From: a virus
Taxonomy: Duplodnaviria > Heunggongvirae > Uroviricota > Caudoviricetes
Length of the DNA: 10,229 bases
Reading direction: 5' to 3' (one strand)
IMG/VR virus record: IMGVR_UViG_2541047831_000006
Positions within the stretch are counted from its first letter, which is position 1. Every line of letters begins with the position of its first letter. Both the position numbers and the translations under genes were made by a program. Positions 2,715 through 10,229 of this stretch are shown piece after piece. The notes under the pieces were generated by a model, which saw only the letters and a program-made list of their open reading frames with translations, ran no database searches and had not been told where the DNA came from.

Positions 2715-2744
2715 TGAAGTGGTCAACAAAAACTGGCCACCGAG

Positions 2745-3892
<1,148 letters not shown>

Positions 3893-3964
3893 TATGGCAC
3901 CTGTGTTGTTCTGAGGTGAGCATATCACCTCTGTTCAGGTGGCCAAATTCAGTAAACCACTTCA

Positions 3965-4451
3965 AAAGTAATTCTGATAGAGCTGATGTATCATCATGAA
4001 CACCATCACCAATAGCCCCCCAACCTCTTACATCATAACTGTCTCTCCATCTTGCTATCTGAAGTTTTGGGTATTTATTCGCTCCATCTGGGTCTTCTAA
4101 TTGCTGCCGTAGTTGATCAGGATCATACTTCAGCACATTCTGGAAATAGAACTGCTGTACGCCATACGCATCGTACACAGCCATAGAATGGCCTTGCACA
4201 GTTACGAACTTGGCAATCCGTCCGTTATATACAGGGTAACCAGCAGCGTTAATGATGATTGGTTGCGAAACAGGAACGTGAGAGCCGTCTTCGTTCTCTA
4301 CATAAACCTGAATCCGGTTTTCAGGATTTACCGGGTCAGTGTCAATTTTACCGATATAAATTTTGCCATTGGCTACGGCTTTAAAAGAACGCGCCATAGT
4401 GAAGAGTTGCGAAGGCATCGATACAATCACATTGGCTGTAATGTCTGTCAT
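3965..4451 (-). pseudogene. Tailspike 5' portion: P22 gp9-like N-terminal head-binding domain followed by the start of the endosialidase region; reading frame runs into IS911
   Basis: N-terminus [11 protein letters not shown]...[21 protein letters not shown]...[10 protein letters not shown]...[13 protein letters not shown]...NVLKYDPDQ closely resembles the P22 tailspike head-binding domain. It then switches to endosialidase-like sequence ([20 protein letters not shown]) before the IS junction at 3964/3965. Start ATG at 4449..4451 with GGAG about 10 nt upstream. Confidence 0.85.
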
Positions 4452-4551: not shown

Positions 4552-5454
4552 TCAGTAATTATGTACTGAAGGAGGTAATTCTTTATTCTTAAGTCTCATC
4601 CATGCGGAAAGATTCGTTGGTCCGTCTGGCTCATTGATATCAACATCTCGTGTGTGATTGATTAAAACGTCTCTCGCCATATCGATAATACGGGAGAACT
4701 CATAACCGCAGTCATGACATCTGCCGGAATAGTTCGATTGAATTTGTTTTAGCGCCGGATACAGTTCGCGGAATAATGCCTGTGAGCGGTTGGCATAATC
4801 CCATAGCCATACAAGGCTGTTTGCTTCTTTTGCAGAAAGCTCGTTGGTTTTCTTCTCTTGTTTGCCGATGAACTCACCTTCAAGCACTACCCTGTGGATG
4901 TACTCTACTGCTTGTGGTATCTGAGATGCATCAAGCTCTTCAATACTTTCCACATTGAAACGCTGATGAATCATTGCATAAGCTTCTGGGTACATTAGAT
5001 GCTTTTTGCTGACTAGCATATTTACAGCATCACGAAGCGGAGTCCTGTCATCAACAGATGTTTTCTTCCGTGCATTTGCTGCCTCTCCCTTTGTCCAGTA
5101 GTCATGCAGCACAGTAAAGCATTCTTCCTGGTACTGAATCAGTTTATCGCGGATGTCAGCACGAACTTTCTCAGGGTTGATGCTGAACAGCCATCCATTT
5201 AACTTCTTCAAAGGAAGGCAGAGTAGCTTACGAAGCTTACCATCAGCGGCAACCATGTTCATATGAACACAGTTGAATTTGCTAATCTGCTTCATGAGTT
5301 TTGTTTGCTGCGTTGACCAGCTCATTCCGAGGTTTTCAACGATTGGCTTCATCGCAACATATGCAACTCCGGCAGCCATGGCGGTGATAATTTGCTGACC
5401 GTTGAATGGCACGTAAGAGGTGTTCACTGCTTCTAAAATTGCTATACTATTCAT
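4552..5454 (-). CDS. ant: Antirepressor Ant (P22 immI-type), about 300 aa; likely start at internal Met ([12 protein letters not shown]...) rather than the ORF-track start at 5520
   Basis: The ATG at 5452..5454 has GGAGA 8 nt upstream, while the ORF-track ATG at 5520 has no Shine-Dalgarno sequence. Gene order arc-ant-tailspike matches the P22 immI region. Identification as Ant rests on this context and on my recollection of the P22 Ant N-terminus. Confidence 0.7.
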
Positions 5455-5455
5455 G

Positions 5456-5522
5456 TTGGTTTTTCTCCACGGATTTACCGACAACCGAAGCCCTGACTGT
5501 TCCAGCAGTTGGGGCTTCACTG
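5456..5522 (+). ncRNA. Candidate sar-like antisense RNA (about 65-70 nt) complementary to the ant ribosome-binding region
   Basis: Plus-strand extended -10 element TGcTATACT (5441..5448) just inside the ant start. Downstream plus-strand hairpin GAAGCCC (5487..5493) / GGGCTTC (5512..5518) followed by a U-rich tract (TGTTTTGATTTCTTTG). The transcript would cover the ant Shine-Dalgarno (plus-strand TCTCC 5464..5468). Analogous to P22 sar. Confidence 0.3.
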
Positions 5523-5686
5523 TTTTGATTTCTTTGCCGCATCAAGCATCACTTCTGAAAACGTGCGCTTGCCACTGAATACTCTTTCTCTTCTCAATTT
5601 TTCGTTCGTGCCAAATGATTCGCCATGAACAAAATTTGGTCTTAAAATGGTAATCGCAATCTCTTTGACTACTGCATCCAAGCGAA

Positions 5687-5839
5687 TCACACCGTTACCC
5701 CCTCTCTCTTCAGGCTGTCTATCAGGCGCTTGATAACCTCTGAGTTAAACGACCTGCACTCTTCCTTTGCCCTGCTACCGATAGCATCCTTTAACGACTG
5801 CGGCATCCTTACCAAAATCTTACTTATTTCTTTCTCCAT
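5687..5839 (-). CDS. arc: Arc-like ribbon-helix-helix repressor (50 aa from the Met with the strong RBS)
   Basis: MEKEISKILVRMPQSLKDAIGSRAKEECRSFNSEVIKRLIDSLKREG resembles P22 Arc (..MPQFNLRWPREVLDLVRKVAEENGRSVNSEIYQRVMESFKKEG). GGAGG lies 6 nt upstream of the ATG at 5837..5839. The ORF-track start at 5875 lacks an RBS. Confidence 0.75.
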   Translation of the reverse strand: MEKEISKILVRMPQSLKDAIGSRAKEECRSFNSEVIKRLIDSLKREGVTV

Positions 5840-5953
5840 GTTACCCTCCACGCAAACAACTCTTTTCGAATACAAAAGATAGCAAAGTGAGTATATCTAG
5901 TCAAAATTTTTTTGCATACACTTTGCTATCAAATTGAATACCAAAGGTGTTAT
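5840..5953. promoter_or_regulatory. Divergent Pant/Pmnt-like promoter-operator region with a perfect 12-bp inverted repeat pair GATAGCAAAGTG (5878..5889) and CACTTTGCTATC (5919..5930)
   Basis: Minus-strand candidate promoter: -35 TTGACT (plus 5899..5904), 17-bp spacer, -10 TATCTT (plus 5876..5881) reading toward arc. Plus-strand candidate -35 TTGCAT (5913..5918) reading toward mnt. One copy of the 12-mer overlaps each promoter. Confidence 0.5.
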
Positions 5954-6202
5954 ATGGCAAAGGGTGTGTCAATTTCTCCAACTACGGTAAGAATCCCTGA
6001 ATCTTTACGCGAGGCTCTTGCTGTCAGAGCATCAAAAAATGGTCGCTCTGTTAACTCCGAGATCGTCATGATTTTGCAAGCCGCGATTGATGAAGATAGG
6101 TCGCCAAAGTCAGTTGAGTCATTTGCTCAGCAAGAAGCTGATAAATTCAAAGAGGCGCTACTTGAGACGCTAAAGACCATGTATGCTAAGGATGAAAAAT
6201 AA
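5954..6202 (+). CDS. mnt: Mnt-like ribbon-helix-helix repressor (82 aa from MAKG...)
   Basis: VRIPESLREALAVRASKNGRSVNSEIVMILQAAI and C-terminal EALLETLKTMYAK resemble P22 Mnt (FRMPMEVREKLKFRAEANGRSMNSELLQIVQDAL ... TLKDLYKK). Divergent from arc-ant as in P22 immI. RBS AAAGG upstream of the ATG at 5954. Confidence 0.75.
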   Translation: MAKGVSISPTTVRIPESLREALAVRASKNGRSVNSEIVMILQAAIDEDRSPKSVESFAQQEADKFKEALLETLKTMYAKDEK

Positions 6203-6738
6203 TGCTGCACACAATTCATTTCTTATGCCCTGTTAACACTGCCACTGTTGGGCAACTTCAGAACCACTGTCTCACCGCATTATCTCAAGGCGCAACTGAA
6301 TTAAATATCCATATATCAAGTCAGGGAGGGGAAACTGCTGCTGGCTTTACTGCGTATAACTTTCTTAAGTCACTCCCTGTTACCGTTAGAACTCACAACA
6401 TAAGCAATGTTGAATCCATAGCTAATATCGTTTTCCTGGCTGGCTCAGAACGTTTCGCAAACCCATTATCAAGATTCCTGTTACATCCTCTATTATGGTG
6501 CTTTGCCTCCCCAGCCGCCGACCATGCCAGATTGAGAGAGTACGGGAAATGCCTCGATAACGATCTTGATCGCTTCGTTGAGACGTTCAATATCGACATC
6601 GGAACCCATATTAGGTGGGCATCCCTGATAGCAGACTCGACCATTTTGGATGCTAACAAGGCTCTTGAGCATGGCATAATTAATTCCATAAAAACTGCAA
6701 GGCTGGCATCCAATCAGGCAAACTGGTGGGTTGTTTGA
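6202..6738 (+). CDS. ClpP-fold (peptidase S14-like) serine peptidase homolog, 178 aa, translationally coupled to mnt
   Basis: Start ATG overlaps the mnt stop (TAATG). Motifs ISSQGGETAAGF, NVESIANIVFLAGS, RFLLHP and DLDRF align by eye to ClpP INSPGGVITAG, GQAASMGAFLLTAG, RVMIHQP and TERDRF, with candidate Ser-His-Asp triad residues conserved. Lacks the ClpP N-terminal axial segment. Confidence 0.65.
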   Translation: MLHTIHFLCPVNTATVGQLQNHCLTALSQGATELNIHISSQGGETAAGFTAYNFLKSLPVTVRTHNISNVESIANIVFLAGSERFANPLSRFLLHPLLWCFASPAADHARLREYGKCLDNDLDRFVETFNIDIGTHIRWASLIADSTILDANKALEHGIINSIKTARLASNQANWWVV

Positions 6739-6761
6739 TGGGTAAATCATGATTACTCCTT

Positions 6762-6785
6762 ATAAAAAACCCACCTGACGGTGGG
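6762..6785 (-). terminator. Rho-independent terminator immediately after the YafO-like gene (minus strand); may also weakly terminate the convergent plus-strand ClpP-like transcript
   Basis: Stem CCCACC (6770..6775) / GGTGGG (6780..6785), loop TGAC. On the minus strand it is followed by TTTTTT (plus-strand A-run 6764..6769); on the plus strand only TTT follows. Confidence 0.6.
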
Positions 6786-6786
6786 T

Positions 6787-7236
6787 TTAGTCAAACATAG
6801 TGTTTCTAAAGTCTCTCGCATACCCTGCTAACACTCTCATTCTATTATGATTGTTAGCAGACATGTGAGCTACAGGATGAAAAAGAGCAATCAATGAATA
6901 CCTGTTCTCATCAAAAAGATTTTGTGCATAAACGAGAGCGGTATTGGATGTTTTATGCCACTGCAACTTTTGCGGTGTGCTGATATCTGTGCCATTTTTT
7001 ATTGGCTCAAATTTATTTTCACCAATTGCTAAATGAAGGTGCATAAGGCCTGCATCTTCAATATCAGGAGGTCGATGATAAGAGGTGTCTCTGCCAAAAT
7101 AGCTGGGCAACGTTCCCGTAGACTTGTAGATGATAAAATCATCTACAAGTGTTTGTTTTAAATCAGGAAACTCAACAAAAACCGGGGAGAAAAAATAGTC
7201 AAAACTATCCTGATTATATTCCACGGTTACTTGCAT
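6787..7236 (-). CDS. YafO-family-like toxin homolog (putative ribosome-dependent mRNA interferase), 149 aa; second gene of a two-gene operon
   Basis: By recollection of E. coli YafO: FIIYKSTGTLPSYFGRD vs FISYKRDGVLPDIFGRD; HLHLA vs HIHLA; ALVYAQNLFDE vs HLVYCQGAFDE; SLIALFHP vs LLIAILKP; NHNRMRVLAGYARDFR vs NNQMHKIGKMAEAFRM. GAGG RBS 6 nt upstream overlaps the upstream gene's TGA. Needs a database search to confirm. Confidence 0.5.
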   Translation of the reverse strand: MQVTVEYNQDSFDYFFSPVFVEFPDLKQTLVDDFIIYKSTGTLPSYFGRDTSYHRPPDIEDAGLMHLHLAIGENKFEPIKNGTDISTPQKLQWHKTSNTALVYAQNLFDENRYSLIALFHPVAHMSANNHNRMRVLAGYARDFRNTMFD

Positions 7237-7244
7237 GTTTTACC

Positions 7245-7811
7245 TCAGTGGAAGTTACCAGAGTGAAACACACGAGTCCCGTGCTCAGCAAGCGCACGCA
7301 AACCAGCCATATCTACGGAACTATCAAAAACAACCGGAACACATGAGCGTTGTTTAATAAGACTATTCAGGTTGGTTACGGCAGATCTGGCATCAGCAAC
7401 AACGATATAGATATCTCTTGCGATCTCTTTAAAATCAGCAGAAGCTTCTTTGAATACCGATTTCATTGCCCCTTCAAGTCCTCTCAATTGATGCTCTATC
7501 AATCGAGACTTTTCTGGTTCAATGATAGACAACACATTGTCTACATTCTCATCGGTAGCGTTTGCAAGAACACGATAAGCGTATTTCAGCATTCGAGACA
7601 ATTCTTTAATCGAAGACACCGCCTCATGAAGCTCATCATTAGCCCGTTCACTGCTGAATGAGGATTGATGGTAAGCGTGCTGAACGTTATCAGTAACAAC
7701 CACCTCACAACTGAACGCAGAAGCTTGCTGTAATAGCAAACCTATTGCGACTCCAGCTTTGGCAGCGTTCAAGCTAAACATTTCATCAATCCCATTAGTC
7801 TCATTGCTCAT
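7245..7811 (-). CDS. Hypothetical protein (188 aa from the Met with the AGGAGG RBS), first gene of the operon with the YafO-like gene; candidate antitoxin or sensor partner
   Basis: Strong RBS AAGGAGG 5-6 nt upstream of the ATG at 7809..7811; the ORF-track start at 7841 lacks one. Predicted largely helical; no motif I can assign. Its stop is 8 nt upstream of the YafO-like start. Confidence 0.55.
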   Translation of the reverse strand: MSNETNGIDEMFSLNAAKAGVAIGLLLQQASAFSCEVVVTDNVQHAYHQSSFSSERANDELHEAVSSIKELSRMLKYAYRVLANATDENVDNVLSIIEPEKSRLIEHQLRGLEGAMKSVFKEASADFKEIARDIYIVVADARSAVTNLNSLIKQRSCVPVVFDSSVDMAGLRALAEHGTRVFHSGNFH

Positions 7812-7986
7812 ACAAACCTCCTTCTTATCGGAGATTATCAATAGCTATGCATCCATTGAATACACGCTATGCGCAATAAGTTTACGTCACGTGATATCAT
7901 TATGCAACCACCGTTCTATCACCGACTAACTTTACTCCCACTCCTATACATCATCTGGTATCCTGCGCAAAACTAAGGAGGTTGGT
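7812..7986. promoter_or_regulatory. Divergent intergenic region between the hypothetical/YafO-like operon and the membrane-protein gene; contains overlapping palindromes TCACGTGA (7887..7894) and GATATC (7893..7898)
   Basis: Strong Shine-Dalgarno sequences on both flanks imply promoters for both divergent transcription units lie here. No confident -10/-35 assignment. Confidence 0.3.
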
Positions 7987-8337
7987 GTGAATGCTCAGTC
8001 TGTCATCATGGTTTTCCTTGGGCTGATTGTCGCAAAACTATATCCAGACTGGTGGAAAGGGGCATTAGCTACTGTCGCCATCTATTTGCTTTTATCCATC
8101 GTTAAGCGATCACTCGCTGAGACCGTAAATCAAGCAAAACGTTTCTCATTTAAGAGTTTAATAAACTATGTTACTGGGCTTATTTTTTGCCTTTCAATTC
8201 TGATCGCTTCGGCTTTTTTGCCCGTATCAATAGCTAATTTTTTTGGCGCACCATATGAGGTAGGTTATCTATTCTCTGTTTCCTGTCTTGCCATTGCTCT
8301 TCTTTACCTGTGGACGAGATCAAAGAATAAAAATTAG
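7987..8337 (+). CDS. Small integral membrane protein (116 aa, about 4 predicted transmembrane helices), GTG start
   Basis: AAGGAGG (7974..7980) 6 nt upstream of the GTG at 7987. Four hydrophobic segments (SVIMVFLGLIVAKLY; ALATVAIYLLLSIV; YVTGLIFCLSILIASAFL; YLFSVSCLAIALLYLW). Confidence 0.6.
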   Translation: MNAQSVIMVFLGLIVAKLYPDWWKGALATVAIYLLLSIVKRSLAETVNQAKRFSFKSLINYVTGLIFCLSILIASAFLPVSIANFFGAPYEVGYLFSVSCLAIALLYLWTRSKNKN

Positions 8338-8354
8338 CCATCCGTGGCTGCCAG

Positions 8355-8630
8355 TTATTGAGCTTCTTTTTGTGATGCCTGTGCGACTCTGGTGAGCGAT
8401 TGTGTGACCGTACTGATCGCTCTGTCATATGCTGTGCTACCTTTTGGCGTATTTGCCAGACGTAACAAGGCATTTCGTATAACAGGGCTTTCGTATGCCT
8501 TCGCAGCTCCTCCTACGACACCAGCAGCAGGAACAACAAACGCAGCCGTTTTTAGCATCCCCGCTAATACTGCTGCGTTTATGATGCCACCACCAACTAA
8601 CAATCCATAAAGCTGCTGACCATTTAAGTT
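8355..8630 (-). pseudogene. Possible 3' fragment of a gene truncated by IS911 copy 2 (Gly/Ala-rich hydrophobic segment, then a polar C-terminus)
   Basis: The minus-strand frame is open from the IS boundary (8630) through to the stop at 8355. The only in-frame starts are TTG (8603) and an ATG (8558) with a weak RBS. No target-site duplication at this IS copy. Confidence 0.3.
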
Positions 8631-8702
8631 TGAAGTGGTTTACTGAATTTGGCCACCTGAACAGAGGTGATATGCTCACCTCAGAACAACACAGGTGCCA
8701 TA

Positions 8703-9850
<1,148 letters not shown>

Positions 9851-9961
9851 CTCGGTGGCCAGTTTTTGTTGACCACTTCACTATGACCACTGGATGCTGT
9901 GGGCGCAGATAGCACATGCAGACGTAACTAATATTCGAATTGAAGAACTGAAAGAACACCA

Positions 9962-9985
9962 AGCCGCCTGATGGCGGTTTTTTAT
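9962..9985 (+). terminator. Candidate rho-independent terminator (plus strand): stem AGCCGCC/GGCGGTT, loop TGAT, then a T-run
   Basis: AAGCCGCCTGATGGCGGTTTTTTATT. The upstream gene it would terminate is not evident, possibly lost at the IS911 junction. Confidence 0.35.
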
Positions 9986-9993
9986 TGCCTGAT

Positions 9994-10009
9994 TTGCAGG
10001 TTCGATTCC
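9994..10009 (+). other. tRNA 3'-end-like motif (TTGCAGGTTCGATTCC, T-arm-like); possible integrase attachment-site core or remnant resembling the 3' part of a tRNA-Arg gene
   Basis: GGTTCGATTCC is a canonical T-loop sequence, but the flanks do not complete a tRNA cloverleaf. From memory the 16-mer matches the argW T-arm; this is unverified. Confidence 0.3.
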
Positions 10010-10028
10010 CTATTCGGAGATAGCACTC

Positions 10029-10229
10029 ATGCAACACGAACTACAACCTGATTCACTGGTTGATTTGAAATTCATCATGGCCGATACTGGCTTCGGTAAA
10101 ACCTTCATCTATGACCGGATTAAGTCCGGCGACCTGCCAAAAGCCAAAGTTATCCACGGGCGAGCAAGATGGTTATATCGTGACCATTGTGAATTCAAAA
10201 ATAAGCTCTTAAGCCGCGCCAATGGGTAA
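10029..10229 (+). CDS. AlpA-family (phage excisionase-like, MerR-type HTH) transcriptional regulator, 66 aa
   Basis: GGAGA 8 nt upstream of the ATG. The segment LKFIMADTGFGKTFIYDRIKSGDLPKAKVIHGRARWLYRDHCEFKNKL has the AlpA-like pattern. Such genes typically sit in integrase-bearing islands. Confidence 0.55.
   Translation: MQHELQPDSLVDLKFIMADTGFGKTFIYDRIKSGDLPKAKVIHGRARWLYRDHCEFKNKLLSRANG

Follow-up and report, generated by a model that had tools for sequence, protein, structure and literature searches.

A ClpP-like gene joined to mnt in the immI region

The stretch of viral DNA analysed here (10,229 nucleotides; IMG/VR virus record IMGVR_UViG_2541047831_000006, Caudoviricetes; hereafter the window) carries on its plus strand an intact open reading frame (ORF) of 178 amino acids, at 6202-6738, that encodes a truncated ClpP-like subunit and directly follows the gene of an Mnt-like ribbon-helix-helix (RHH) repressor. 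The mnt-like gene (5954-6202, plus strand, 82 amino acids) matches the Pfam family Arc (9.5e-11), the closest solved relative of its product is Mnt of phage P22 (1MNT, E 2.3e-6, residues 12-73), and RefSeq names the protein 'Arc family DNA-binding protein'. An arc-like gene (5687-5839; Pfam Arc 5e-12) and the antirepressor gene ant (4552-5457; P22_AR_N 4e-45, P22_AR_C 2e-28, PHROG_245 Ant 5e-96) lie on the minus strand, and the divergence of mnt from arc and ant reproduces the layout of the immI region of P22.

The two plus-strand genes meet in the sequence aaaTAATGctg (6198-6208), in which the ATG of the clpP-like gene (6202-6204) shares one base with the TAA of mnt (6200-6202). A Shine-Dalgarno-like AAGGA motif within mnt lies 9 nucleotides 5' of this ATG, the whole junction occupying 6186-6204 on the plus strand. 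Our survey covered 100 related loci from genomes and viral contigs, and more were added by exact-protein look-up. In its close clade (at least 80% identity; E. coli and relatives) mnt stands directly 5' of the clpP-like gene in 45 of the 47 resolved loci, and the one-nucleotide overlap is likewise the same in 45 of 47. An earlier note on this DNA, made from the letters alone, had proposed a 178-amino-acid ORF whose start codon overlaps the stop of an upstream mnt and is translationally coupled to it. Reading of the sequence bore out the ORF and its overlap, the Pfam and 1MNT matches together with the arc/ant setting confirmed the identity of the upstream gene, and the shared nucleotide and the AAGGA motif support the predicted coupling.

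The region between the divergent arc and mnt genes (5840-5953) is the presumed operator and promoter zone for mnt and the clpP-like gene, a function assigned after the example of P22 immI. It contains a perfect 12-bp inverted repeat, GATAGCAAAGTG, with arms at 5878-5889 and 5919-5930 and 29 bp between them (0.01 matches expected), which is probably the operator for this allele of Mnt or Arc. A sigma-70 scan of the arc-mnt region returned one site, on the minus strand (5904-5876), and the site count was no higher than in shuffled sequence; in scans of three solitary relatives (see below) sites were also no more frequent than in shuffled sequence.

Downstream, between the clpP-like gene and a convergent yafO-like gene, a hairpin with a 9-bp stem (AAACCCACC / GGTGGGTTT) occupies 6767-6788. 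Its RNA fold reaches -17.6 kcal/mol (z = -2.8 on the plus strand, z = -3.0 on the minus strand), and a run of T follows the stem on the minus strand. The hairpin was recognised by folding and was not called by a simple terminator scan; the same 42 bp are labelled 'terminator' in phage Emek, and identity between loci collapses past about 6790. It is probably a two-way terminator that forms the right edge of the module described below.

Between arc and ant, the minus strand holds a further ORF of 57 codons (5517-5690), which is annotated as hypothetical in E. coli APEC O1 and SF-088 and in phage phiv205-1 and matches no family. To our knowledge, P22 has no annotated gene between arc and ant.

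Fold, active site and closest assayed relative

The product of the clpP-like gene matches Pfam PF00574 (CLP_protease, peptidase S14) over residues 24-165 with 44.4 bits against a cut-off of 20.2 (E 2.2e-11). An AF2 monomer model built on 54 relatives has a mean predicted local distance difference test (pLDDT) value of 95 and a predicted template modelling score (pTM) of 0.90. In Foldseek superpositions the model fits E. coli ClpP (1YG6/7MK5) with a template modelling score (TM) of 0.83-0.85 and a root-mean-square deviation (rmsd) of about 2 A, and 9uxt_A (PDB 9UXT) with a TM of 0.94 and an rmsd of 1.6 A; Listeria ClpP1/2 (4RYF) is the second structural match. The ratio of nonsynonymous to synonymous substitution rates (dN/dS) against diverged copies is about 0.07-0.08, with dS near saturation, and by this measure the gene is under purifying selection. 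It is near certain that the window protein is a ClpP-fold Ser/His peptidase subunit.

The family was aligned as a profile to E. coli ClpP, whose reference sequence is identical to that of 1TYF, and residues were mapped from this alignment. The stretch SSQGGETAAGF aligns with NSPGGVITAGM of ClpP, so that G43 equals G68, while S72 (in NVESIAN) corresponds to Ser97 and H95 (in FLLHP) to His122; S72, H95, G42 and G43 are invariant among the 54 relatives. The counterpart of Asp171 is Ser146, within IADSTIL, and in the 54 relatives this column holds Pro (21), Ser (15), Ala (14), Thr or Gly and never Asp. Other conserved residues of the family are D121 (in DLDRF) and E113, both invariant, and the nearly invariant D107 and H108; D121 belongs to the long handle helix. 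The alignment pairs residue 32 with residue 57 of ClpP and leaves the N-terminal 25 residues of mature ClpP without a counterpart. The protein thus begins at the equivalent of mature ClpP residue 26 and is without the axial gating loops and the first helix. E. coli ClpP residues Y60, Y62, F82, I90 and L114, which, as known from ADEP-ClpP structures, form the docking pocket for the IGF/LGF loops of ClpX and ClpA, align with N35, H37, S57, H65 and N87.

Measured against canonical ClpP, the window protein is therefore without the Ser-His-Asp triad (S97, H122, D171), the N-terminal axial loops and most of the hydrophobic residues that make up the docking pocket. The features that the earlier note had named fared accordingly. 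The ClpP fold was confirmed by the profile score, the model and its superposition, and the glycine-rich oxyanion region and the absence of the N-terminal axial segment also held in the alignment. As for the proposed triad, its Ser and His stood, whereas the Asp of DLDRF, although invariant, does not fall at the position of Asp171 and had to be given up as the third residue; judging by the alignment, there is no Ser-His-Asp triad in this protein.

By far the top match in the PDB is 9UXT (phmmer E 1.6e-35, residues 3-175 against 4-179), with 38% identity in the Foldseek superposition and about 40% to its close Pseudomonas relatives. This structure is PpClpP1 (ClpP1) of Pseudomonas plecoglossicida, published in 2026, an N-terminally truncated protein with a Ser73-His96-Pro151 arrangement that assembles into a homotetradecamer with an axial pore of 42.7 A (PMC12900304). 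Its peptidase activity alone is measurable and 13-fold below that of the canonical ClpP2; S73A or H96A abolishes this activity, whereas P151A/D leaves about 60% of it (PMC12900304). PpClpP1 does not bind ClpX, degrades neither casein nor GFP-ssrA without ClpX and ClpP2, and forms with ClpP2 a stable heterotetradecamer of higher peptidase activity (PMC12900304).

The window protein shares with this relative the length class (178 and 183 amino acids), the loss of about 25 N-terminal ClpP residues, and an active site that keeps Ser and His and has a residue other than Asp in third place. As far as the alignment goes, it carries all the sequence features that define the PpClpP1 type. The two proteins differ in being about 40% identical, in the third position (Pro151 there, Ser146 here) and in their setting. 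PpClpP1 was studied as a chromosomal Pseudomonas gene, and the paper makes no mention of phages (PMC12900304). In several Pseudomonas species the genes of this type are chromosomal and flanked by those of small KGG-repeat general-stress proteins and by a DUF6555 gene (L112-L117 of the survey), whereas the window copy is phage cargo coupled to an immunity repressor, and its E. coli host has a single canonical ClpP with no established ClpP1/ClpP2 pair. The Pseudomonas neighbours suggest a stress-regulon setting, which is not discussed in the description of PpClpP1 (PMC12900304). With so close a biochemical precedent the window gene is less exotic than first thought. The statement of the earlier note that no characterized system had this architecture holds for the phage gene itself, on which no paper was found, and fails for its type, since a homologue was solved and assayed in 2026.

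The behaviour of PpClpP1 bears directly on the reading that the phage protein is a stand-alone, ATPase-independent peptidase, a wide-pore homotetradecamer that trims peptides or unfolded chains in stressed lysogens without contact to host ClpP. The missing docking pocket and N-terminal gate, the measurable activity of the 42.7 A-pored PpClpP1 homotetradecamer on its own and the KGG general-stress genes beside the Pseudomonas copies would all suit such an enzyme. We nevertheless consider it improbable, as PpClpP1 alone is 13-fold weaker than ClpP2, leaves casein undegraded and gains activity in the heterocomplex. A deregulated protease with an open gate, as might be read from the missing N-terminus, was down-weighted on the same casein result.

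Genomic sites and boundaries of the clpP-like module

The Mnt proteins that precede the clpP-like gene in the surveyed loci belong to at least five unrelated N-terminal (DNA-binding) types, that of P22 among them, and all of them end in ...ETLKTMYGKDEK or a close variant. In pairwise DNA comparisons, identity of 96-100% is confined to a segment that starts in the last 10-25 codons of mnt (about 6132-6190) and ends shortly after the stop codon of the clpP-like gene (about 6760-6790); the flanks on either side are unrelated between loci. These sharp limits make the clpP-like gene a discrete module of about 600 bp. The mosaic is seen when loci L002, L038, L039, L040, L057 and L065 are set against window positions 5954-6202, where varied N-termini are followed by the shared C-terminal 10-25 codons. 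As these codons travel with the clpP-like gene, the recombination joint lies inside the C-terminal region of the repressor. The module leaves no space for a promoter of its own, hence the clpP-like gene would depend on the mnt promoter (Pmnt) and the mnt transcript. In the sewage Lederbergvirus E212 (MZ043897, L003) the clpP-like gene is kept and mnt and most of ant and arc are lost; homology to the window starts there 20 nucleotides before the ATG, and the gene is unannotated in the record.

Five kinds of site were found for the family. P22-like phages such as phiv205-1 have the gene in immI. In lambda-like PhiR12 phages the clpP-like gene lies, together with the whole ant-arc-mnt cassette, between the tail genes K and L. 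In Klebsiella, E. coli and others, relatives of 51-75% identity run antisense in the gap that separates the Rz/Rz1 lysis genes from those of the terminase, either solitary or preceded by one co-oriented gene without assigned function. Proteus relatives are antisense between an N-like antiterminator and the ERF/SSB early genes, and those of Pantoea and Erwinia antisense between the tape-measure gene and baseplate-type genes, while the Pseudomonas and Massilia copies are chromosomal. In a set of E. coli prophages (L094-L101 and L108) a 52%-identical relative located between lysis and terminase genes has a co-oriented 182-amino-acid PHROG_5483 gene (2219-2767 in L108) 79 nucleotides upstream, and the pair would form a two-gene antisense insert.

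The clpP-like gene itself was found in 128 of 5,426 complete E. coli genomes (2.4%), always on the chromosome and among others in APEC O1, the type strain ATCC 11775 and K1 bloodstream isolates; of cultured phages, no more than six records contain it. Among 1.8 billion cluster representatives scanned, 524 family members were retrieved at E up to 1e-10. The family moves between phage genomes and bacterial chromosomes.

Orientation follows one pattern across these sites. The labelled phage neighbours in the survey are all on the opposite strand, save Mnt and two small unknown genes, and in the window the tailspike, ant, arc and injection-protein genes all run opposite to mnt and the clpP-like gene. 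None of the about 100 related loci has the gene in sense orientation within a head module (portal, protease-scaffold, capsid). Location outside the head module and orientation against the lytic operons make expression in the lysogen the natural expectation, and mnt is a maintenance gene in P22. By analogy with P22, the ClpP-like protein is likely made in lysogens together with Mnt.

The same data bear on a misplaced or fossil head-maturation (prohead) protease and on the toxin half of a pair with an RHH antitoxin, to which jointly we give next to no credence. The match to PHROG_94 'head maturation protease' (7e-21), repeated in the annotation of phiv205-1, speaks for a head protease; with such proteases the protein has in common the fold superfamily, the Ser/His core, the short length and the lack of the ClpP N-terminal gate. 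However, the PHROG_94 match covers only the protease core of a 622-position profile, the gene scores 49.3 bits against a cut-off of 120 for the head-protease family NCBIfam NF045542, it has neither fusion to nor neighbourhood with scaffold or capsid genes, and it runs antisense to the structural operons. P22-like phages assemble their heads without proteolysis, and a phage of the window type needs no head protease. A fossil is at odds with an intact gene under purifying selection. An RHH gene that overlaps the gene downstream does resemble a type II toxin-antitoxin layout, but here the RHH gene is a real Mnt in its arc/ant setting, and the distant relatives have no RHH partner. The head protease was thus rejected on family score, gene position and phage type, and the toxin-antitoxin pair on the mnt pairing, which is not conserved among the relatives. 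The earlier note had likewise placed the gene outside the head module, which its position between mnt and the yafO-like gene and the survey confirm, and the outcome that it named as refuting, a misplaced fragment of a head module, was not seen.

A protease that serves only the immI switch, and stabilises lysogeny by clearing Ant or Arc (or Mnt) produced through leakage, would account for the strict coupling to mnt in the close loci and for the co-transfer with ant-arc-mnt into PhiR12 phages. We hold it to be very unlikely. The module boundary runs inside mnt, and the gene is joined to at least five Mnt specificities; the 51-75% relatives stand alone outside immI, with no Mnt or Ant homologue found within 3.5 kb in the survey, and P22 itself does without a ClpP-like gene. 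The suggestion of the earlier note that the protease acts on the Ant/Arc circuit is weakened by these solitary relatives at sites unrelated to immI. The linkage of homologues to mnt-like genes, which it had proposed to survey, is strong in the close clade (45 of 47) and absent beyond it, no RHH gene being found upstream of relatives below 80% identity.

As a genetic element the clpP-like gene appears to behave like a moron, grafted in the window onto the gene of an immunity repressor. It shares with lambda bor after Rz, P22 sieA beside mnt and HK97 gp15 in the tail genes, which are known cargo at fixed variable sites, the form of a single small gene with sharp mosaic boundaries, placed at several sites between conserved genes and against lytic transcription. 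It differs from the classic definition in that a moron has its own promoter, whereas the window copy borrows Pmnt and the ribosome flow of mnt, and in that its cargo is a cytoplasmic subunit of a self-compartmentalising protease and not a membrane or surface protein. The Rz, N and mnt-adjacent sites of the family are places at which lambda and P22 have lysogen-expressed cargo, other examples being bor after Rz and sieB near N.

The window is a decayed CUS-3-type K1 prophage. Its positions 7900-10229 (2,330 bases searched) are 100% identical to the chromosome of the bloodstream isolate E. coli SF-088, which also keeps the order of the genes in the remainder of the window. At 1-94 the heptanucleotide CTTGAGT (its reverse complement contains AAGACTC) is repeated in perfect tandem, and in SF-088 this array runs into an acyltransferase gene; we take it to be the phase-variable repeat of neuO, with which phage CUS-3 encodes an O-acetyltransferase for the K1 capsule. 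Two inverted, 100% identical copies of ISEc52 (RefSeq; IS3-family, IS911-related; 1257 nucleotides each) occupy 2715-3971 and 8624-9880. The endosialidase tailspike gene is broken by the left copy, its head-binding part lying at 3861-4451 and its catalytic part at 253-2466; the right copy truncates the injection-protein gene and is directly followed by torI and the host gene dsdC, an arrangement from which it follows that most of the prophage is deleted. The decay has left the genes of immI and the ClpP-like and yafO-like genes intact. APEC O1 has the same genes within a prophage whose tailspike and injection-protein genes, and the virion genes near them, are uninterrupted.

Convergent with the ClpP-like gene, the homologue of the YafO-family toxin (6787-7236, minus strand; Pfam 3e-22) is a shorter ORF in the RefSeq annotation of SF-088. 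It is preceded in its operon by a gene for a 188-amino-acid PHROG_8416 protein (7245-7811, minus strand), and no recognisable YafN antitoxin is found there; together they may form a toxin-antitoxin or defence pair of an unusual kind, housed in the same cargo island. A 116-residue hydrophobic ORF (7987-8337, plus strand), presumably of a membrane protein and without family match, has the orientation of mnt. With the cargo genes on one side and the injection-protein gene on the other, it stands roughly at the position that the gene of SieA, the inner-membrane exclusion protein, occupies in P22.

With these neighbours in view, the gene might be a superinfection-exclusion or anti-phage effector, whose protease, alone or with host ClpP, destroys a protein of the incoming phage or triggers abortive infection. 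It occupies the variable slot beside mnt, where in P22 sieA, orf59a and mnt are adjacent (PMC10883804), its relatives are found at further phage sites from which lysogen-expressed genes for exclusion or conversion are known, and in the window prophage the YafO-family toxin gene adjoins it. In spite of this setting we rate the proposal as rather unlikely. A PADLOC-DB 2.0 scan of the ClpP-like protein and four neighbours gave no meaningful match, and none at all at E up to 0.1 for the ClpP-like protein. A literature search for the phage gene (RefSeq WP_000903306), for a defence role of it, or for a Clp protease at immI/mnt found nothing. In Pseudomonas and Massilia the gene is an ordinary chromosomal one, with stress genes beside it, and lies outside defence islands, and PpClpP1 alone degrades neither of the two protein substrates assayed.

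A possible second ClpP ring in lysogens

The explanation that we favour, to which we would give an even chance, makes the product a PpClpP1-type accessory isoform of ClpP, which temperate enterobacterial phages carry as moron-like cargo and which pairs with host ClpP in lysogens. The clpP-like gene would be read from the mnt transcript, its start codon coupled to the mnt stop, and following the P22 paradigm the protein would be co-produced with Mnt in the lysogen. As in PpClpP1, its subunits would form heptameric rings, and a phage ring would pair with a host ClpP ring in a mixed 7+7 particle. The host ring of this particle would still be served by ClpX or ClpA, with an altered activity or cleavage output, as was measured for PpClpP1 with PpClpP2. 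Since the phage protein would be unable to recruit an unfoldase itself, it would act mainly by pairing with the host ring, and as E. coli has a single ClpP, the lysogen would gain a two-isoform Clp protease.

Chromosomal two-isoform systems provide the model for this partnership, which we regard as plausible. In P. aeruginosa ClpP1/ClpP2, Listeria ClpP1/2 and M. tuberculosis ClpP1P2, one isoform is weak or inactive alone, does not dock an unfoldase and works as one ring of a mixed tetradecamer, which is the mechanism suggested here for the phage protein. These systems differ from it in consisting of chromosomal paralogues, most of which keep an Asp or Asn as third residue and longer N-termini, and in that the mixed particle is established there, whereas for the phage protein it is proposed by analogy. 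Candidate benefits to the prophage or its host are proteostasis under stress, stability of the prophage and interference with phages that infect the lysogen. The readings as an exclusion factor and as a stress peptidase, set out above, overlap with a pairing of the two rings instead of excluding it.

Several points weigh against an accessory isoform. Its expression, its oligomeric state and its partnership with ClpP are all transferred from a homologue of about 40% identity in another genus, and even there ClpX-driven degradation by PpClpP1P2 rises only slightly (PMC12900304). The conserved C-terminal NWWV tail and the residues D107, H108, E113 and D121 have no explanation in it and could reflect a partner or a chemistry unlike those of PpClpP1. 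The promoter scans are uninformative, the sequence gives no hint of a substrate, and the window copy may be present simply by inheritance in a decayed prophage remnant.

More tentatively still, in a version that we would sooner doubt than accept, such a portable second ClpP isoform would reprogramme ClpXP and ClpAP in lysogens for superinfection exclusion or for the control of prophage stability, and in P22-like phages it would be wired to the Mnt operon. On ClpXP and ClpAP depends the fate of many regulators of phage and host, among them lambda O, the Mu repressor and transposase, RpoS, antitoxins and SOS proteins.

The truncated, Asp-less type of ClpP was first described in 2026, and from its sequence the window protein is a further member; what appears new, as far as we could find, is a phage-borne accessory ClpP isoform under Mnt control, of which no earlier description was met. 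Our survey places the recently solved PpClpP1 in a wider family, for which the annotations 'ATP-dependent Clp protease proteolytic subunit' (in E. coli genomes) and 'head maturation protease' (in phage records) are both misleading. If the explanation is true, a ClpP ring supplied by the prophage would be a new viral way to tune host proteolysis from within, as a change imposed by a phage on a central host protease, and E. coli, the model organism with a single ClpP, would gain a natural and easily studied two-isoform Clp system.

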